Virus record (IMG/VR): IMGVR_UViG_3300028591_000110
Span: 1-64,000 of that record
Origin: a virus
Taxonomy: Duplodnaviria; Caudoviricetes
Reading direction: 5' to 3' (one strand)
DNA: 64,000 bases
This document shows, in pieces, positions 25,509 to 30,180 of this stretch (positions are counted from its first letter, which is position 1; every line of letters starts with the position of its first letter). The notes under the pieces are model-generated. The model worked only from the letters and a program-made list of their open reading frames with translations, was not told the origin of the DNA and ran no database searches. The translations under genes were made by a program, and so were the position numbers.

Positions 25509-25537
25509 TTGACAAACCGGAATCTGTCTGATACAAT
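25509..25537 (+). promoter_or_regulatory. Sigma-A promoter of the tRNA cluster
   Basis: TTGACA-17 bp-TACAAT with extended TG. Confidence 0.85.
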
Positions 25538-25562: not shown

Positions 25563-25638
25563 GCCGGCGTAGCTCAGATGGCAGAGCAGGGCATTTGTAA
25601 TGCTCAGGCCGGGGGTTCGAGTCCGTCCGCCGGCTCCA
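25563..25638 (+). tRNA. tRNA-Thr(UGU)
   Basis: Cloverleaf, loop TT-TGT-AA, GTTCGA, CCA. Confidence 0.92.
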
Positions 25639-25639
25639 T

Positions 25640-25713
25640 GCTGGCGTAGCACAAAGGTAATGCGGCGGTTTCGTAAGCCGTTGATGGCGGTTCGATTCCG
25701 CCCGCCAGCTCCA
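25640..25713 (+). tRNA. tRNA-Thr(CGU)
   Basis: Loop TT-CGT-AA, CCA. Confidence 0.9.
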
Positions 25714-25777
25714 AAAGCGCAAACAGCAACCGTTGTGAATGTTTGGCGCCATTTTTGCCAAGTTTTCATTGCGCTTT
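25714..25777 (+). ncRNA. Stem-ACAGCAA element A (hairpin cargo)
   Basis: AAAGCGC-AA-ACAGCAA...GCGCTTT. Confidence 0.65.
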
Positions 25778-25809
25778 GATTTTTTTATTCATAGCAAGCC
25801 ATAAAAGAC

Positions 25810-25885
25810 GGGGCTGTAGCTCAGTTGGGAGAGCATCTGCTTTGCAAGCAGGGGGTCTGGGGTTCGAGTCCCCATAGCTCCACCA
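25810..25885 (+). tRNA. tRNA-Ala(UGC)
   Basis: Loop TT-TGC-AA, G3-U70, CCA. Confidence 0.93.
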
Positions 25886-25891
25886 TTCTTC

Positions 25892-25967
25892 GGGCGTGTA
25901 GCTCAGATGGAAGAGCAGCAGACCTTTAATCTGTTGGTCGCGGGTTCAAGTCCCTCCACGCCCACCA
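25892..25967 (+). tRNA. tRNA-Lys(UUU) with C33
   Basis: GCAGA-CCTTTAA-TCTGT, CCA. Confidence 0.88.
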
Positions 25968-25972
25968 AGCGA

Positions 25973-26048
25973 CTGGGCGTAACTCAGATGGAAGAGTGCG
26001 AGATTTGGGATCTCGAAGCCGCGAGTTCGAGTCTCGCCGCTCAGACCA
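25973..26048 (+). tRNA. tRNA-Pro(UGG)
   Basis: Loop TT-TGG-GA, CCA. Confidence 0.9.
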
Positions 26049-26065
26049 AATAATTACAGAAGGGT

Positions 26066-26275
26066 GTGAATGTGTTGAACGACAAGTCCAGCAAAGCATC
26101 GTCAAGCTCAGGGATCGGATTTTGCGGTCTTCTGACGATTGCGTTTATCGTGCTGAAATTGCTCCATGTGATCGAATGGTCATGGGTGTGGGTTTTGGCG
26201 CCGATGTGGATTGGCCTTTTGATCGGGATGATTATTCTTGCGGTCGTCGTGGTCATTGCGCTGAAAGTCGATTAG
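26066..26275 (+). CDS. Small two-TM membrane protein (GIGF.GLLTI.FIVLKL..VI.WSW.WVLAP family)
   Basis: Recurrent phage membrane-protein pattern. Exact start uncertain. Confidence 0.75.
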   Translation: MNVLNDKSSKASSSSGIGFCGLLTIAFIVLKLLHVIEWSWVWVLAPMWIGLLIGMIILAVVVVIALKVD

Positions 26276-26294
26276 GGAGTGTCCTGGAGGATTC

Positions 26295-26474
26295 ATGAGT
26301 ATGAAACAGACAGATGTTCAGGAATGCACCGTGCGATGTGCGGAGTGTTCAAATCATGACATGACATTCACGTTCTCTGACGGGTATGAAGTAACGTGCG
26401 GATATCTGCTGCGGCATGGTAAAGCCAGAGGATGCCCTGCTGGTGATGAATGCAAGAGGTTTGAAGAAGGATAA
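26295..26474 (+). CDS. 59-aa Cys-rich protein
   Basis: GGAGG RBS and CAEC...CGY...GCPAGDEC. Below the ORF-track cutoff. Confidence 0.55.
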   Translation: MSMKQTDVQECTVRCAECSNHDMTFTFSDGYEVTCGYLLRHGKARGCPAGDECKRFEEG

Positions 26475-26574
26475 GCGAATTGAGTAGTGAGTAAAGATCC
26501 TCACAAAGCGTGCCGCAATGTACACCCATTCATAACAGAGACCGTACAACTCTTTGGATGGTGCGGCAGGGACT

Positions 26575-26651
26575 AGACGTATGGTGTAGCGGGAGCAAGC
26601 CCGATGGAGTGCCACGGGAGGGTGTAAGTTCGATTCTTACATGCGTTGACC
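26575..26651 (+). ncRNA. tRNA-like RNA with aberrant anticodon arm
   Basis: T-arm GTAAG-TTCGATT-CTTAC and acceptor GACGTA/TGCGTT. The CCCG/CGGG stem closes an 11-nt loop. Confidence 0.55.
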
Positions 26652-26850
26652 GAAAAGAAAATCTCTTAAAAGCGTGATGTGTGAAGTAACTGAGAAACGG
26701 CTTCGATGACTGAAGATTAAAAATGCCACTTGGTTGGGTTGCGCAGCCCGGTCAAGGCTCAGTTCCCATAGGTGTGAGACCTGTGGCTCAATTCCAAAAA
26801 GATCTGATCGTAGGACGCGATCATGATAATCAAAAGAATGTTCAAAGATC

Positions 26851-26905
26851 AGACGCGAACAGCAACTTTATGATGCAGGATATAGGATTTGCGTTTTTAG
26901 CGTCT
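26851..26905 (+). ncRNA. Stem-ACAGCAA element B (hairpin cargo)
   Basis: AGACGC-GA-ACAGCAA...GCGTCT. Confidence 0.65.
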
Positions 26906-26918
26906 AGCATTACACAAA

Positions 26919-27087
26919 AAGGCACGCACAGCAATCTTTTTAAAAAGAAGATATGTTTTGAACAATGAACGAACGAGATCAGGATCTGATCTGAGATGAC
27001 GGTGCCTGCACCGGAGCCTTTTATTCGATTCCGCGCGTAGCCCCGATTTGGCCGCGTGACGGTATCGCAACTTTCCTTTTGTGCCTT
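26919..27087 (+). ncRNA. Stem-ACAGCAA element C (about 145-nt multi-hairpin cargo)
   Basis: AAGGCAC-GC-ACAGCAA...GTGCCTT. Confidence 0.6.
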
Positions 27088-27095
27088 GATAATAA

Positions 27096-27171
27096 TGGTG
27101 GGTAGCTCAGTCGGTAGAGCCCCGGCCTGTTAAGTCGGTTGTCGTGGGTTCGAGTCCCACCCCATCAGCCA
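27096..27171 (+). tRNA. tRNA-Asn(GUU)
   Basis: Loop CT-GTT-AA, GCCA end. Confidence 0.92.
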
Positions 27172-27238
27172 AACCACATTTTAAGCGAAAAAGCTCGGCG
27201 GGCAGCTTCCAAACATGGTTTTACAACCGCCACGATAT

Positions 27239-27313
27239 TGCGGAGTGGAGGAGCGGTTTCCTTGTCGGCCTCATAAGCCGAAGACACGGGTTCGAATCCC
27301 GTCTCCGCAACCA
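27239..27313 (+). tRNA. tRNA-Met(CAU), initiator-like
   Basis: Loop CT-CAT-AA with fMet-like acceptor and D arm. Anticodon stem is TCGGC/GCCGA rather than three G-C pairs. Confidence 0.85.
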
Positions 27314-27435
27314 GGGGAGTGCGTGCGCTACACTTCAAAGCGACCCCGAAAACGGAAAAAGAAGTGTGACTTTTCGGAATAGGCGAGACCGATGACGCAA
27401 TGTGATAACAGCGCACAGCCGATAGACGGCTGTAT

Positions 27436-27512
27436 GGCCGGTTAGCTCAGCCGGTTAGAGCACTTGCCTTACAAGCAAGGGGGCGCAGGTTCGAGCCCTG
27501 CACCGGCCACCA
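27436..27512 (+). tRNA. tRNA-Val(UAC)
   Basis: Loop CT-TAC-AA, CCA. Confidence 0.93.
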
Positions 27513-27521
27513 ACTGAATAA

Positions 27522-27597
27522 GCGGGCGTGGTGTTTAATGGTAACATCCCGGCCTTCCAAGCCGGTGTTGCGGGTTCAAGTCCCGTTGCCCGTTCCA
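27522..27597 (+). tRNA. tRNA-Gly(UCC)
   Basis: Loop CT-TCC-AA, TCCA end. Confidence 0.92.
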
Positions 27598-27600
27598 CCA

Positions 27601-27683
27601 GGGCGAGTGATGAAATTGGCAGACATGTCGGATTTAGGTTCCGGTGCTTCGGCGTGCGGGTTCAAATCCCGCCTCGCCTACCA
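27601..27683 (+). tRNA. tRNA-Leu(UAG)
   Basis: Loop TT-TAG-GT, long variable arm, CCA. Confidence 0.92.
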
Positions 27684-27704
27684 AACACTTTTGCAATGAA
27701 AATG

Positions 27705-27765
27705 AGAGCGCTTGCAGCAACTTTTCTTGGAATAGACTTTTAATCTATAAACCCAAAGGCGCTCT
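27705..27765 (+). ncRNA. Stem-GCAGCAA element D carrying a Lys(UUU) anticodon stem-loop
   Basis: AGAGCGC-TT-GCAGCAA...ATAGA-CTTTTAA-TCTAT...GCGCTCT. Confidence 0.7.
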
Positions 27766-27772
27766 GGATTAT

Positions 27773-27857
27773 GGCGATGTGATGGAATCGGCAGACGTGT
27801 CTGACTCAAAATCAGATGCCGCAAGGCGTGTGGGTTCAAGTCCCACCATCGCCACCA
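27773..27857 (+). tRNA. tRNA-Leu(CAA)
   Basis: Loop CT-CAA-AA, long variable arm, CCA. Confidence 0.92.
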
Positions 27858-27879
27858 ATACTGCAAAGTAAGGAATTTT

Positions 27880-28296
27880 ATGACAAGGTTTCAGCAAAAC
27901 GGGCATGATTGCCGCGTGAAGGAGAAGCTTTCCACCGGGCAGACGATAGACATGTTTTTCGAGTGTATTGATGAATATAAAGGCACTCTCTATTACAATA
28001 TCTCTTTGTCTGTTTACTCGAAGCGAAAGCACGCTTACAAAAACGAAGACGAGAAGAAGATCACCGGGAAGAACCCGGTTGAAACCGTGTTGGCTGCCAG
28101 AAGGATCTTTTATGAAATTGAGGATCATATCATCGCCGAATGCAAAGCCGCAGGTCTGGATGTAGTGTTCGAGGTATTCTGGACAGACAAGCGAAGAAGA
28201 GATGCGTACTATAAGGCATTATCCAAGGATGGATATCGGTATGGTATGCGCGATGATGTGAAGTGCCTGGAAAAACGGGTATTTCATGATGAATGA
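27880..28296 (+). CDS. Hypothetical protein within the tRNA cluster
   Basis: AAGGA RBS, 138 aa. Confidence 0.7.
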   Translation: MTRFQQNGHDCRVKEKLSTGQTIDMFFECIDEYKGTLYYNISLSVYSKRKHAYKNEDEKKITGKNPVETVLAARRIFYEIEDHIIAECKAAGLDVVFEVFWTDKRRRDAYYKALSKDGYRYGMRDDVKCLEKRVFHDE

Positions 28297-28305
28297 ATCG
28301 ACGAT

Positions 28306-28384
28306 AAGTCTCACACAGCAATTTTCTTGGTAAAAACAAATGACTGCAAATCATATGTCGTGGTTCAAATCCACATTGAGGCTT
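28306..28384 (+). ncRNA. Stem-ACAGCAA element E carrying a Cys(GCA) tRNA body
   Basis: AAGTCTC-AC-ACAGCAA, ATGA-CTGCAAA-TCAT, T-arm GTGG-TTCAAAT-CCAC, closing GAGGCTT. No CCA. Confidence 0.7.
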
Positions 28385-28408
28385 GCTTGAAACATTTTTA
28401 TTCCTCCA

Positions 28409-28521
28409 AAGTCGCTGACAGCAATGATTTACTCCGGCCTCCGGAGAGTAGTTCAAGGGTAGAATATGCGCCTGATAATCGCAAGCTGCGGGTTCGAATC
28501 CCGCCTTAATAAATGCGACTT
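28409..28521 (+). ncRNA. Stem-ACAGCAA element F carrying an Ile(GAU) tRNA body
   Basis: AAGTCGC-TG-ACAGCAA, D arm TAGTTCAAGGGTAGAAT, loop CT-GAT-AA, T-arm GCGGG-TTCGAAT-CCCGC, closing GCGACTT. Confidence 0.7.
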
Positions 28522-28529
28522 GTTTATAT

Positions 28530-28606
28530 AGTTCGGTAGCGAAGATGGTTATCGCGCTGGCCTGTCACGCCAGAGATCGCGGGTTCGATCCCCGTCCGGA
28601 CTGCCA
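28530..28606 (+). tRNA. tRNA-Asp(GUC)
   Basis: Loop CT-GTC-AC, GCCA end. Confidence 0.92.
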
Positions 28607-28611
28607 AAAGT

Positions 28612-28898
28612 CAATCGGCGCGGCGATTAAGCTTGGTAAGCGAGGCAAAGTCTTTATATCATCTACTGTGGGGAGAATGTTAAATCCCGCCGAGTCGCGC
28701 CGATATGAACAGAGAGATTGCCGCAGAGTGGATGATGCGGGATAAAAATATCGACCATCCTCTATGGGTAGGGAGGCTGAAATGTTGTCGGCCACATAGA
28801 GTGAGTCCTAGGCCCCATGGCGCTAATGGAGCATGCGTGAATGGAGAAACTCGTTAATCGATGACACTCCTAAAAAGTGCCTGAAACGCTAGGCATTA
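28612..28898 (+). ncRNA. Unidentified structured RNA with probable pseudoknot
   Basis: ATCGGCGCGGC/GTCGCGCCGAT stem. Loop ATCATCTACTGTGG is complementary to the downstream CCGCAGAGTGGATGAT. Confidence 0.45.
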
Positions 28899-28901
28899 TA
28901 A

Positions 28902-28976
28902 TGGGGCGTCGCCAAGCGGTAAGGCACAGGACTTTGACTCCTGCATCCGCTGGTTCAAATCCAGCCGCCCCAGCCA
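28902..28976 (+). tRNA. tRNA-Gln(UUG)
   Basis: Loop CT-TTG-AC, GCCA end. Confidence 0.93.
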
Positions 28977-29081
28977 AAGGACAAGGCAAAGTCGGTAAAA
29001 CCCCTCGTGGGCGGTCTGTAGTGGTTAAGCGTCTTGCGGTAGTTTTCTGTTGATTCCGCAACGAAGCACAAAGAACAGATA

Positions 29082-29257
29082 GATGCGGTGGCGGAATAGA
29101 CCGGGTAAGACGCCGGGTGCTGAGATAGTCAGCGCCGCTGTATAGCGGAGGAATAGTAGACGCTTCAGGTGCTTGATGTCGCAAGGGTGCACACTTGAAA
29201 TAGCACAAGGGGTACAAAAATCGACATCCTGTAAGGTGCAAATCCTTACCCGCATTG
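29082..29257 (+). ncRNA. Oversized tRNA-like RNA (176 nt)
   Basis: Acceptor GATGCGG/CCGCATT, split D arm GGCGGAATA...GTAGACGC and T-arm GTAAGG-TGCAAAT-CCTTAC. Confidence 0.6.
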
Positions 29258-29262
29258 AATAT

Positions 29263-29338
29263 ATACCTCTGGTGTAATTGGAAACATACCGGTCTCCAAA
29301 ACCGGGAGATCGGGGTTCGAGTCCTCGGGGGTGTGCCA
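29263..29338 (+). tRNA. tRNA-Trp(CCA)
   Basis: Loop CT-CCA-AA, GCCA end. Confidence 0.88.
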
Positions 29339-29342
29339 ATAT

Positions 29343-29419
29343 GCTGCTCTCTTCTAACCGGCATAGGAAACCGGCCTCTCAAGCCGGAAATACGAGTTCG
29401 AGTCTCGTGAGCAGTACCA
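29343..29419 (+). tRNA. tRNA-Glu(CUC)
   Basis: Loop CT-CTC-AA, CCA. Confidence 0.88.
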
Positions 29420-29423
29420 CTAT

Positions 29424-29499
29424 GGCGCTGTAGTCGAGAGGGCTAAGACGCCGGCCCTTCAAGCCGGAGACGCGGGTTCGATTCCCGCCAGCGCTGCCA
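29424..29499 (+). tRNA. tRNA-Glu(UUC) with C33
   Basis: CCGGC-CCTTCAA-GCCGG, GCCA end. Confidence 0.88.
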
Positions 29500-29511
29500 A
29501 AGGAGATTTTT

Positions 29512-29715
29512 ATGGCTGACAGAATTGCAAGAAAGATTCCGGCAAGCGAGAGCGGCGCAGGGAATACGATTCATACAAAGAGCGGCAGAGTTTATCGGAT
29601 TACGATGAATCCGGACAAGCGGGTTCATACAATCTGGGAGGTCGTAGAAGGCGGCTTCCGGAAGATCGCAAGCGCGGATTCGCCGCTGAAGCTGCATAAG
29701 CATGTGCAGGAATAA
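29512..29715 (+). CDS. Small basic hypothetical protein
   Basis: AAAGGAG RBS. Confidence 0.65.
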   Translation: MADRIARKIPASESGAGNTIHTKSGRVYRITMNPDKRVHTIWEVVEGGFRKIASADSPLKLHKHVQE

Positions 29716-29718
29716 CAT

Positions 29719-29805
29719 GGGGGAGCGCCGGAGTTGGTGAGCCGGGGCGGTCTGTAAAACCGTTGCCGTTTGGCTGAGATGGTTCGAATCCATCCTCCCT
29801 CACCA
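29719..29805 (+). tRNA. tRNA-Tyr(GUA)
   Basis: Loop CT-GTA-AA, long variable arm, CCA. Confidence 0.9.
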
Positions 29806-29814
29806 TTGATATAT

Positions 29815-29899
29815 GCCGAGTGACGCAATCCGGCGATTGCACCGGTCTTGAAAACCGTGGGTACGAGAGTATGGGGATCGACACCTCCGCTCGGCGCCA
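29815..29899 (+). tRNA. tRNA-Ser(UGA), atypical T-loop ATCGACA
   Basis: Loop CT-TGA-AA, variable arm, GCCA end. Confidence 0.8.
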
Positions 29900-29904
29900 A
29901 TTAT

Positions 29905-29981
29905 GGGCGGTTAGCTCAGTTGGTAGAGCGCTTGGTTGAAGCCCAAGGCTTGCGGCGGTTCGATTCCGTCACTGCCCACCA
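29905..29981 (+). tRNA. tRNA-Phe(GAA) with G37
   Basis: CTTGG-TTGAAGC-CCAAG, CCA. Confidence 0.88.
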
Positions 29982-30154: not shown

Positions 30155-30180
30155 GACCAGAGTAACGCTCTGGTCTTTTT
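30155..30180 (+). terminator. Intrinsic terminator ending the RNA cluster
   Basis: GACCAGAG-TAACG-CTCTGGTC-TTTTT. Confidence 0.8.

Follow-up and report, generated by a model that had tools for sequence, protein, structure and literature searches.

Cytidine at position 33 of phage-encoded tRNA-Lys(UUU) and tRNA-Glu(UUC), a possible escape from attack on the anticodon loop

In the 64,000-nucleotide stretch analysed here (the window), which is the first 64 kb of a 135,563-bp single-contig phage genome (IMG/VR record IMGVR_UViG_3300028591_000110; G+C 50.9%), two tRNA genes of a large array, those for tRNA-Lys(UUU) and tRNA-Glu(UUC), carry a cytidine in place of the uridine at position 33 of the anticodon loop. 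Few nucleotides in biology are as conserved as U33, which forms the U-turn presenting the anticodon and is near-universal for this reason. Both C33 genes look like working, selected tRNA genes, and C33 recurs on different tRNAs of other phages. Our favoured reading, to which we give a probability of about 0.45, is that C33 is a selected variant through which phage tRNAs evade host enzymes that act on their anticodon loop, probably nucleases cleaving 3′ of U33. The two genes are the following:

25892..25967, + strand: tRNA-Lys(UUU), anticodon arm GCAGA-CCTTTAA-TCTGT, C32 at 25923, C33 at 25924, anticodon 25925-25927
29424..29499, + strand: tRNA-Glu(UUC), anticodon arm CCGGC-CCTTCAA-GCCGG, C33 at 29457, anticodon 29458-29460

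The anticodon loops were read directly from the sequence and then confirmed with ARAGORN, and both readings agree with the C33 assignments of the original prediction. All remaining tRNAs keep T33, as had been claimed for 17 others (16 other ARAGORN tRNAs of the array, a tRNA-Ser(UGA), an Ile(GAU)-like element and two tRNAs at 114.5 kb of the genome), with the minor correction that the count for this phage is 2/22 rather than 2/19. Among those retaining U33 are Gln(UUG) and Glu(CUC), the latter (29343-29419) adjoining Glu(UUC). Apart from the missing U33, the base of the U-turn, both C33 tRNAs show every feature of an RF00005 elongator tRNA that we examined: a full cloverleaf by ARAGORN, GG in the D-loop, an encoded 3′ CCA and canonical T-loops with G53, T54, T55, C56, A58 and C61 (TTCAAGT in Lys, TTCGATT in Glu). 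Their Rfam RF00005 scores (63.3 bits for Lys and 67.1 bits for Glu, against a gathering score of 29) rank among the highest of the array. The C33 tRNA-Lys is the sole Lys tRNA of the phage, and the codons AAA, AAG, GAA and GAG together account for ~12% of phage codons, which points to a need of the phage for both tRNAs. The chance that both C33 of 21 tRNAs fall within the 2-thio-U34 set (Lys, Glu, Gln) is 3/210 = 0.014, a post hoc figure for a Lys/Glu pattern that fails in relatives.

Contigs with identical neighbouring proteins were located in many public assemblies, which allowed the C33 bases to be compared across sequencing runs. The Lys C33 is identical in the Logan assembly of SRR8436538 and the ENA assembly ERZ27292107, and the Glu C33 loop recurs in 12 or more independent assemblies from different runs; such agreement rules out the sequencing or assembly error about which the original prediction had been wary. 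In strain L070, 321 of the 2845 array positions outside the tRNAs (11.3%) differ from those of the window, while tRNA-Lys shows 0 changes in 76 nt and Glu(UUC) a single change in 76 nt, at the discriminator. That the tRNAs stay unchanged or nearly so while their spacers diverge to this degree argues for purifying selection on the C33 tRNAs. Dead pseudogenes are likewise disfavoured by the intact cloverleaves, the high Rfam scores and this conservation, with nothing in their favour, so that error and pseudogenes are hardly credible even when taken jointly. The position of the Lys gene also differs from that in relatives: tRNA-Lys is the last array gene in L026, L030, L039 and L040 (following Phe, or Ser in those that lack Phe), whereas in the window phage this terminal slot is empty and the C33 Lys stands between Ala and Pro (25810-26048). 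The closest clade homologue with U33 shares 83% identity with it, and from its shifted place the gene looks as if it had replaced the clade's own tRNA-Lys rather than arisen from it by point mutation.

Relatives of the window phage (large terminase, TerL, 63-66% identical) are common in IMG/VR, and they also occur in Clostridia genome assemblies, including the isolates “Clostridiaceae bacterium strain 9” and “Bacterium D16-76”, where they are probably prophages. The window phage itself is probably a gut Clostridia phage. Among 215 unique tRNAs of this clade, 13 well-formed ones carry C33, spread over different lineages and 10 different anticodons:

L022 and L039: C33 in Met(CAU) and Val(UAC), and, in L022 alone, also in Pro(UGG)
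L025 and L030 groups and the prophage of Clostridiaceae strain 9: C33 in Ser(UGA), and in Cys(GCA) in L030, L031, L033, L052 and L080
L078, a rabbit-gut metagenome-assembled genome: C33 in Pro(UGG) and Glu(UUC)
L081, the D16-76 prophage: C33 in Thr(UGU)
L060 and L072, a close strain of the window phage: C33 in Tyr(GUA), with C38 and an altered 31-39 pair alongside

The idea that C33 marks “exactly” Lys and Glu consequently describes the window phage only, as relatives have it in Met, Val, Pro, Cys, Ser, Thr and Tyr, and in the cases counted among them Lys(UUU) has U33 in 15/15 and Glu(UUC) in 12/12. Elsewhere in the clade tRNAs, deviations number 0-1 each at G53, T55, C56 and C61, 7 at T54 (6 of them to A) and 3 at A58. 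Since these other invariant positions are mostly quiet, position 33 is a specific, repeatedly hit site, and the change there is always to C. A further deviation, U8C, is found in every clade tRNA-Tyr(GUA) (window 29719-29805; L022-L081), position 8 being near-universally U elsewhere. We considered it as a sign of general relaxation and dropped it, the cases being confined to this single Tyr lineage or reflecting ARAGORN offsets in Pro.

Beyond the clade, a generic pattern for C33 tRNA-Lys(UUU) matched 34 IMG/VR contigs, many of them large phages, which hold 26 different tRNA-Lys genes with no pair 85% identical. In a sample of tRNA-Lys(UUU) retrieved with a Y33 pattern, and so not selected on base 33, C33 occurred at 3/80 loci (~4%); the C33 share of IMG/VR tRNA-Lys is estimated from this sample rather than from separate C33 and U33 scans. 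Scans of IMG/VR with the exact anticodon arms and Y33 returned 21 unrelated T33 tRNAs for the Lys arm and no matches for the Glu arm, and were uninformative on this lineage. One pair of phages is 91-97% identical around tRNA-Lys, and those tRNA genes differ only by U33C, which makes a natural isogenic pair (L124, IMG/VR 3300045988_140539, and L185, IMG/VR 3300045988_136005). For bacteria, the C33 Lys pattern had 0 matches in 401 Clostridia genomes, while its U33 version matched 38/41 genomes. In the Bacterium D16-76 lysogen, T33 is found in 35/35 chromosomal tRNAs, its own Thr(UGU) included, and the prophage Thr(UGU) has C33; the host control here is the lysogen of a related prophage rather than the window phage's own host.

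Among 880 other unique phage tRNAs, 25 have C33 and 8 have A33 or G33. C33 is 3.8-fold enriched in tRNAs decoding ANN codons (such as Asn, Ile, Thr and Met; 17/324 vs. 8/556, p = 0.002), an enrichment that is absent within the window clade (4/67 vs. 10/146), and it is more frequent in phages that already have a C33 Lys (9/139 vs. 16/741, p = 0.01). One 391-kb jumbo-phage contig (L005, IMG/VR 3300028898_000252) has a C33 tRNA-Asn(GUU); the same contig also has A33 and G33 tRNAs, perhaps degenerate. Being recurrent and independent in phages and unseen in the searched bacterial genomes, C33 suggests strong selection specific to phage tRNAs.

It is on the published specificities of PrrC, RloC and Cas13 that we base our preference for escape. 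PrrC cuts tRNA-Lys 3′ of U33, and RloC excises the wobble nucleotide 34 with a preference for Glu, then Lys (PMC2610378). The preferred tRNAs of LshCas13a are Lys(UUU), Glu(UUC), Gln(UUG) and Thr(UGU), cut at the first anticodon nucleotide with uridine preferred and independently of modification (PMC11042736), and a Cas13b excises U33 of tRNA-Val (PMC13692257). The original prediction had listed anticodon nucleases as attackers of these two tRNAs, which stands for PrrC and RloC and extends to Cas13a; PARIS AriB, which it also named, fits poorly, as this nuclease reads U36-A-A-U39 and cuts between 40 and 41 (PMC12409363). The window tRNA-Lys reads U36 A37 A38 U39 C40 U41, so that the site at 36-41 is unchanged and AriB was rejected as the selective agent. 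Enzymes like yeast gamma-toxin were also set aside, cleavage by this toxin being unaffected by U33C (PMC2275089).

The likeliest attackers would be HEPN-type anticodon nucleases of the PrrC, RloC or Cas13 kind, which cut tRNA-Lys(UUU) and tRNA-Glu(UUC) at the U33|U34 junction and which, in the studied cases, leave a uridine 2′,3′-cyclic phosphate or favour a uridine there. A C in place of U33 would remove the uridine beside the scissile bond and retain a pyrimidine, which older tRNA work found to be the substitution at this position best tolerated by the ribosome. During infection, host U33 Lys and Glu tRNAs would then be cut while the phage copies went on reading AAA/AAG and GAA/GAG, and an RNA ligase/kinase operon of the phage would mend whatever was still cut. 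The remodelled Tyr arm of the close strain L060/L072 (C33, C38 and the changed 31-39 pair) supports escape. Charging and use of the C33 tRNAs, a nuclease as the selecting force and its blocking by C33 are what we infer.

Several observations weigh against such an escape. The tRNA-Gln(UUG), a target shared by Cas13a and gamma-toxin, keeps U33 in the window phage, and gamma-toxin, the sole nuclease with which U33C was tested, showed no effect of it (PMC2275089). Three uridines remain in the Lys anticodon, where a uridine-specific enzyme could still cut, and the enrichment of C33 in ANN decoders fits a modification-linked cause (N6-threonylcarbamoyladenosine at position 37, t6A37) as well as it fits a nuclease. 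The argument is also drawn from sequence and literature. A weaker point is that PF13166 (the PrrC/RloC ATPase) gave no match above cut-off in three lysogen genomes, weak because lysogens are not resistant hosts.

Among the alternatives, the main rival, which we regard as unlikely, is that C33 blocks host modification, i.e., t6A37 on ANN decoders and perhaps the 5-substituted 2-thiouridine at position 34 (xm5s2U34) on Lys and Glu, in which case the under-modified phage tRNA would decode differently or escape enzymes that recognise a modified loop. E. coli TsaBCDE does not add t6A to U33C tRNA (PMC8887486) and eukaryotic Elongator requires U33 for U34 modification (PMC11096365), but a bacterial TsaBD-tRNA structure has no base-specific contact to U33, which its authors call unrelated to t6A (PMC13276492). 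The ANN enrichment among the 880 phage tRNAs, Lys(UUU) being itself an ANN decoder, is in favour of a modification effect, as is a cysteine desulfurase gene beside the phage RNA ligase, a hint at tRNA thiolation; on the other hand, most C33 tRNAs of the clade (Glu, Val, Pro, Cys, Ser(UGA), Tyr) fall outside the t6A substrates, and the clade lacks the enrichment. From E. coli work, loss of the 2-thiouridine at position 34 is moreover expected to hurt charging by glutamyl-tRNA synthetase. Near-neutral drift, where host redundancy would relax the constraint on U33 and a T-to-C transition would be tolerated, seems rather improbable to us. It would accommodate the non-U33 bases of phage tRNAs in general (the 25 C and 8 A/G above), the functional C33 of eukaryotic initiator tRNAs (PMC8887486) and a set of affected tRNAs that varies among relatives without an obvious rule. 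It does not sit well with the lack of similar relaxation at other invariant positions, with a change almost always to C among well-formed tRNAs, with Lys and Glu C33 tRNAs conserved across 11% spacer divergence, with C33 kept in 26 deeply diverged tRNA-Lys lineages or with C33 tRNAs co-occurring beyond expectation. Editing of C33 to U was also considered, and there was no evidence for it.

Two further explanations turn on other parts of the genome. Degradation of host tRNAs and their replacement by phage tRNAs have been reported in other phages, and a tRNA nuclease made or activated by the window phage might similarly destroy host U33 Lys and Glu tRNAs and spare its own C33 copies. The genome is unusually tRNA-oriented (~22 tRNAs, tRNA-like RNAs, a DUF2828 protein, a ligase, a kinase and a nucleotidyltransferase), but such self-immunity is quite improbable: no such nuclease was found in the part of the phage proteome scanned, and the different tRNAs protected in relatives would go unexplained. 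The original prediction had instead paired the resistant C33 tRNAs with a cleavable decoy, a tRNA-like element (cassette D) whose wild-type CT-TTT-AA Lys loop, which we confirmed at 27732-27748, would soak up the nuclease:

27705..27765, + strand: cassette D, with an outer 7-bp stem formed by 27705-27711 with 27759-27765

Bare anticodon stem-loops do serve as substrates of PrrC and gamma-toxin (PMC2275089), and cassette D presents a perfect CUUUUAA loop on a 5-bp stem (ATAGA-CTTTTAA-TCTAT). The pairing nevertheless fails on co-occurrence, since the Lys-loop cassette is independent of the C33 state: relatives with a U33 tRNA-Lys have it at the same site, flanked by Leu(UAG) and Leu(CAA), and it is present in L026, L040 and L079, which have no C33 tRNA in the fetched stretch. 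Its loop is CTGTTAA (Asn-type) in L039, L081 and L024, no cassette shows a Glu-type loop, and the element belongs to a whole family of similar RNAs with other loops. We thus consider a decoy role very improbable, and escape of the C33 tRNAs themselves from loop-directed attack stays the reading we prefer.

Cassette D is a real, conserved, structured tRNA-like RNA and not a partner of the C33 change. Its interior holds a single-stranded GCAGCAA, an inner U/A-rich stem and the Lys-type stem-loop, and four of its pairs show compensatory changes across five phages. The genome holds at least 11 tRNA-like RNAs tagged with RCAGCAA, cassette D among them, with copies at window positions 25723, 26859, 26928, 27714, 28315 and 28418 (+ strand) and at genome positions 114071-114939 (− strand). 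The motif is clustered in the two tRNA regions and nowhere else (6 copies within 2.7 kb and 5 within 0.9 kb, against genome-wide counts of 37 and 45 on the two strands), and each clustered copy lies 3′ of a GC-rich stem and 5′ of tRNA-like pieces, some with T-arms. The loops shown by these RNAs are of the Lys, Cys, Ile, Asn and His types. The function of cassette D may be related to tRNA-binding proteins.

The operon expected to mend cut tRNAs lies outside the window and adjoins two tRNAs and five of the RCAGCAA RNAs at 114.07-114.94 kb. It comprises five genes (L248 coordinates where given):

L248 4083-9977, − strand (genome ~108.1-114.0 kb): the five-gene operon
L248 4083-5030, − strand: polynucleotide kinase (AAA_33) with an HD domain (PF13671 1.3e-20, PF01966 3.2e-7, phrog_505)
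L248 5825-7261, − strand: RNA ligase (phrog_968, E 4.5e-63; PDB Naegleria RNA ligase, E 1e-3)
within the L248 operon, adjoining the RNA ligase, − strand: cysteine desulfurase of the class-V aminotransferase type
within the L248 operon, − strand: nucleotidyltransferase (phrog_388)
within the L248 operon, − strand: DUF2828/DUF7788 RNA-binding protein (phrog_850)

A kinase, a phosphoesterase-type (HD) domain and an RNA ligase are thus encoded together, a heal-and-seal logic like that of T4, which suggests that the phage may invest in tRNA damage control.

Structural genes of the window phage match SPbeta-type Yon families, together with the large terminase; INPHARED yielded no close relatives, with generic tRNA matches only. 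The tRNA array and its surroundings are organised as follows:

25509..25537, + strand: predicted sigma-70-type promoter (TTGACA, 17 nt, TG-n-TACAAT), directly 5′ of the first tRNA
25563..29981, + strand: tRNA array, with 18 ARAGORN tRNAs, Ser(UGA), the Ile(GAU)-like element and interspersed tRNA-like RNAs
28442-28512, + strand: Ile(GAU)-like element, an Rfam tRNA match with T33, not an ARAGORN call
29814-29896, + strand: tRNA-Ser(UGA), with a long variable arm, loop CTTGAAA and T33; Rfam match
30155..30175, + strand: predicted terminator-like hairpin, 9 pairs then TTTTTCATTT (T run), after the last tRNA; a consensus match only
~114.5 kb of the genome, outside the window: two further tRNAs, both T33

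The predicted promoter has 11/12 hexamer matches and an extended −10 element, a consensus match only from which function is presumed. The tRNA-Ser(UGA) at 29814-29896 was missed by ARAGORN in the window strain and called as Ser(UGA) in related strains, and Rfam scores it as tRNA-Sec-like (42.3 bits). The “6A RNA” family RF02925 matches inside the array (window 26800-26848, + strand; 47.3 bits vs. a gathering score of 41.2). Whole tRNA alleles are swapped or heavily changed among near-identical strains (L070, L071 and L072 vs. the window) while neighbouring tRNAs are identical, with 20 differences in Asp, 11 in Tyr, up to 7 in Gln and 7 in Glu(CUC), at window sites 28530-28606, 28902-28976, 29343-29419 and 29719-29805.

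It is tempting, if tentative, to speculate that U33C is a general and repeatedly evolved counter-defence signature of phage tRNAs, i.e., a one-base escape from host enzymes that require U33. Were this so, C33 would be a marker readable from sequence alone that flags targeted tRNAs, and from the C33 set of an uncultured phage one could tell which host tRNAs are being attacked in its ecosystem. The class would take in about 4% of phage tRNA-Lys(UUU) and a few per cent of the tRNAs for Asn, Ile and Thr, and it would offer a minimal design rule for nuclease-resistant tRNAs and a test of the ribosome's real need for U33. Our literature searches found nothing on PrrC or RloC with U33 mutants, and no paper on recurrent U33C in phage tRNAs, in a search that missed most subscription journals. 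That phage tRNAs resist defence nucleases through changes in the anticodon arm is established (PMC10264068, PMC11464382, PMC12409363); the concept of resistant phage tRNAs is therefore already published, and the recurrent U33C appears not to be.

Among known systems, the closest likeness is to phage T5's tRNA-Lys(UUU), a phage copy whose anticodon arm is unlike that of the host and which lets translation continue once the host tRNA has been cut by PARIS AriB (Burman 2024, PMC11464382; PMC12409363). The window tRNAs similarly have arms that differ from those of the host at or near a nuclease site, as judged against the related-prophage lysogen and the Clostridia genomes. The changes themselves are different: T5 escapes through U39A and A41C by the stem cut at 40/41, whereas the window tRNA-Lys has neither of these, keeps U36-A-A-U39-C40 and carries U33C in the loop. 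The same idea was put forward by van den Berg et al. (2023; PMC10264068) for loop changes that mycobacteriophage and coliphage tRNAs carry where VapC, PrrC and colicins cleave or recognise them, with a pattern that varies among phages; position 33 appears not to be discussed there, and for tRNA-Lys these authors give repair, not mutation, as the explanation. Such repair is known from T4, where Pnkp and Rnl1 mend PrrC-cut tRNA-Lys, and the window phage likewise has a kinase, an HD domain and an RNA ligase in one operon. Unlike T4, it combines the repair genes with an altered tRNA, and its ligase, for which activity on tRNA is putative, is of another family (phrog_968, weakly like the Naegleria RNA ligase). 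A natural and functional C33 is found in the cytoplasmic initiator tRNA-Met of multicellular eukaryotes, where it is an anti-determinant for some t6A enzymes (PMC8887486), whereas the window tRNAs are bacterial-type elongators for Lys and Glu in a phage. Overall, the observation stands and has been extended, and the original interpretation finds partial support, the C33 tRNAs being read here as a U33C variant of the defence-resistant phage tRNA.

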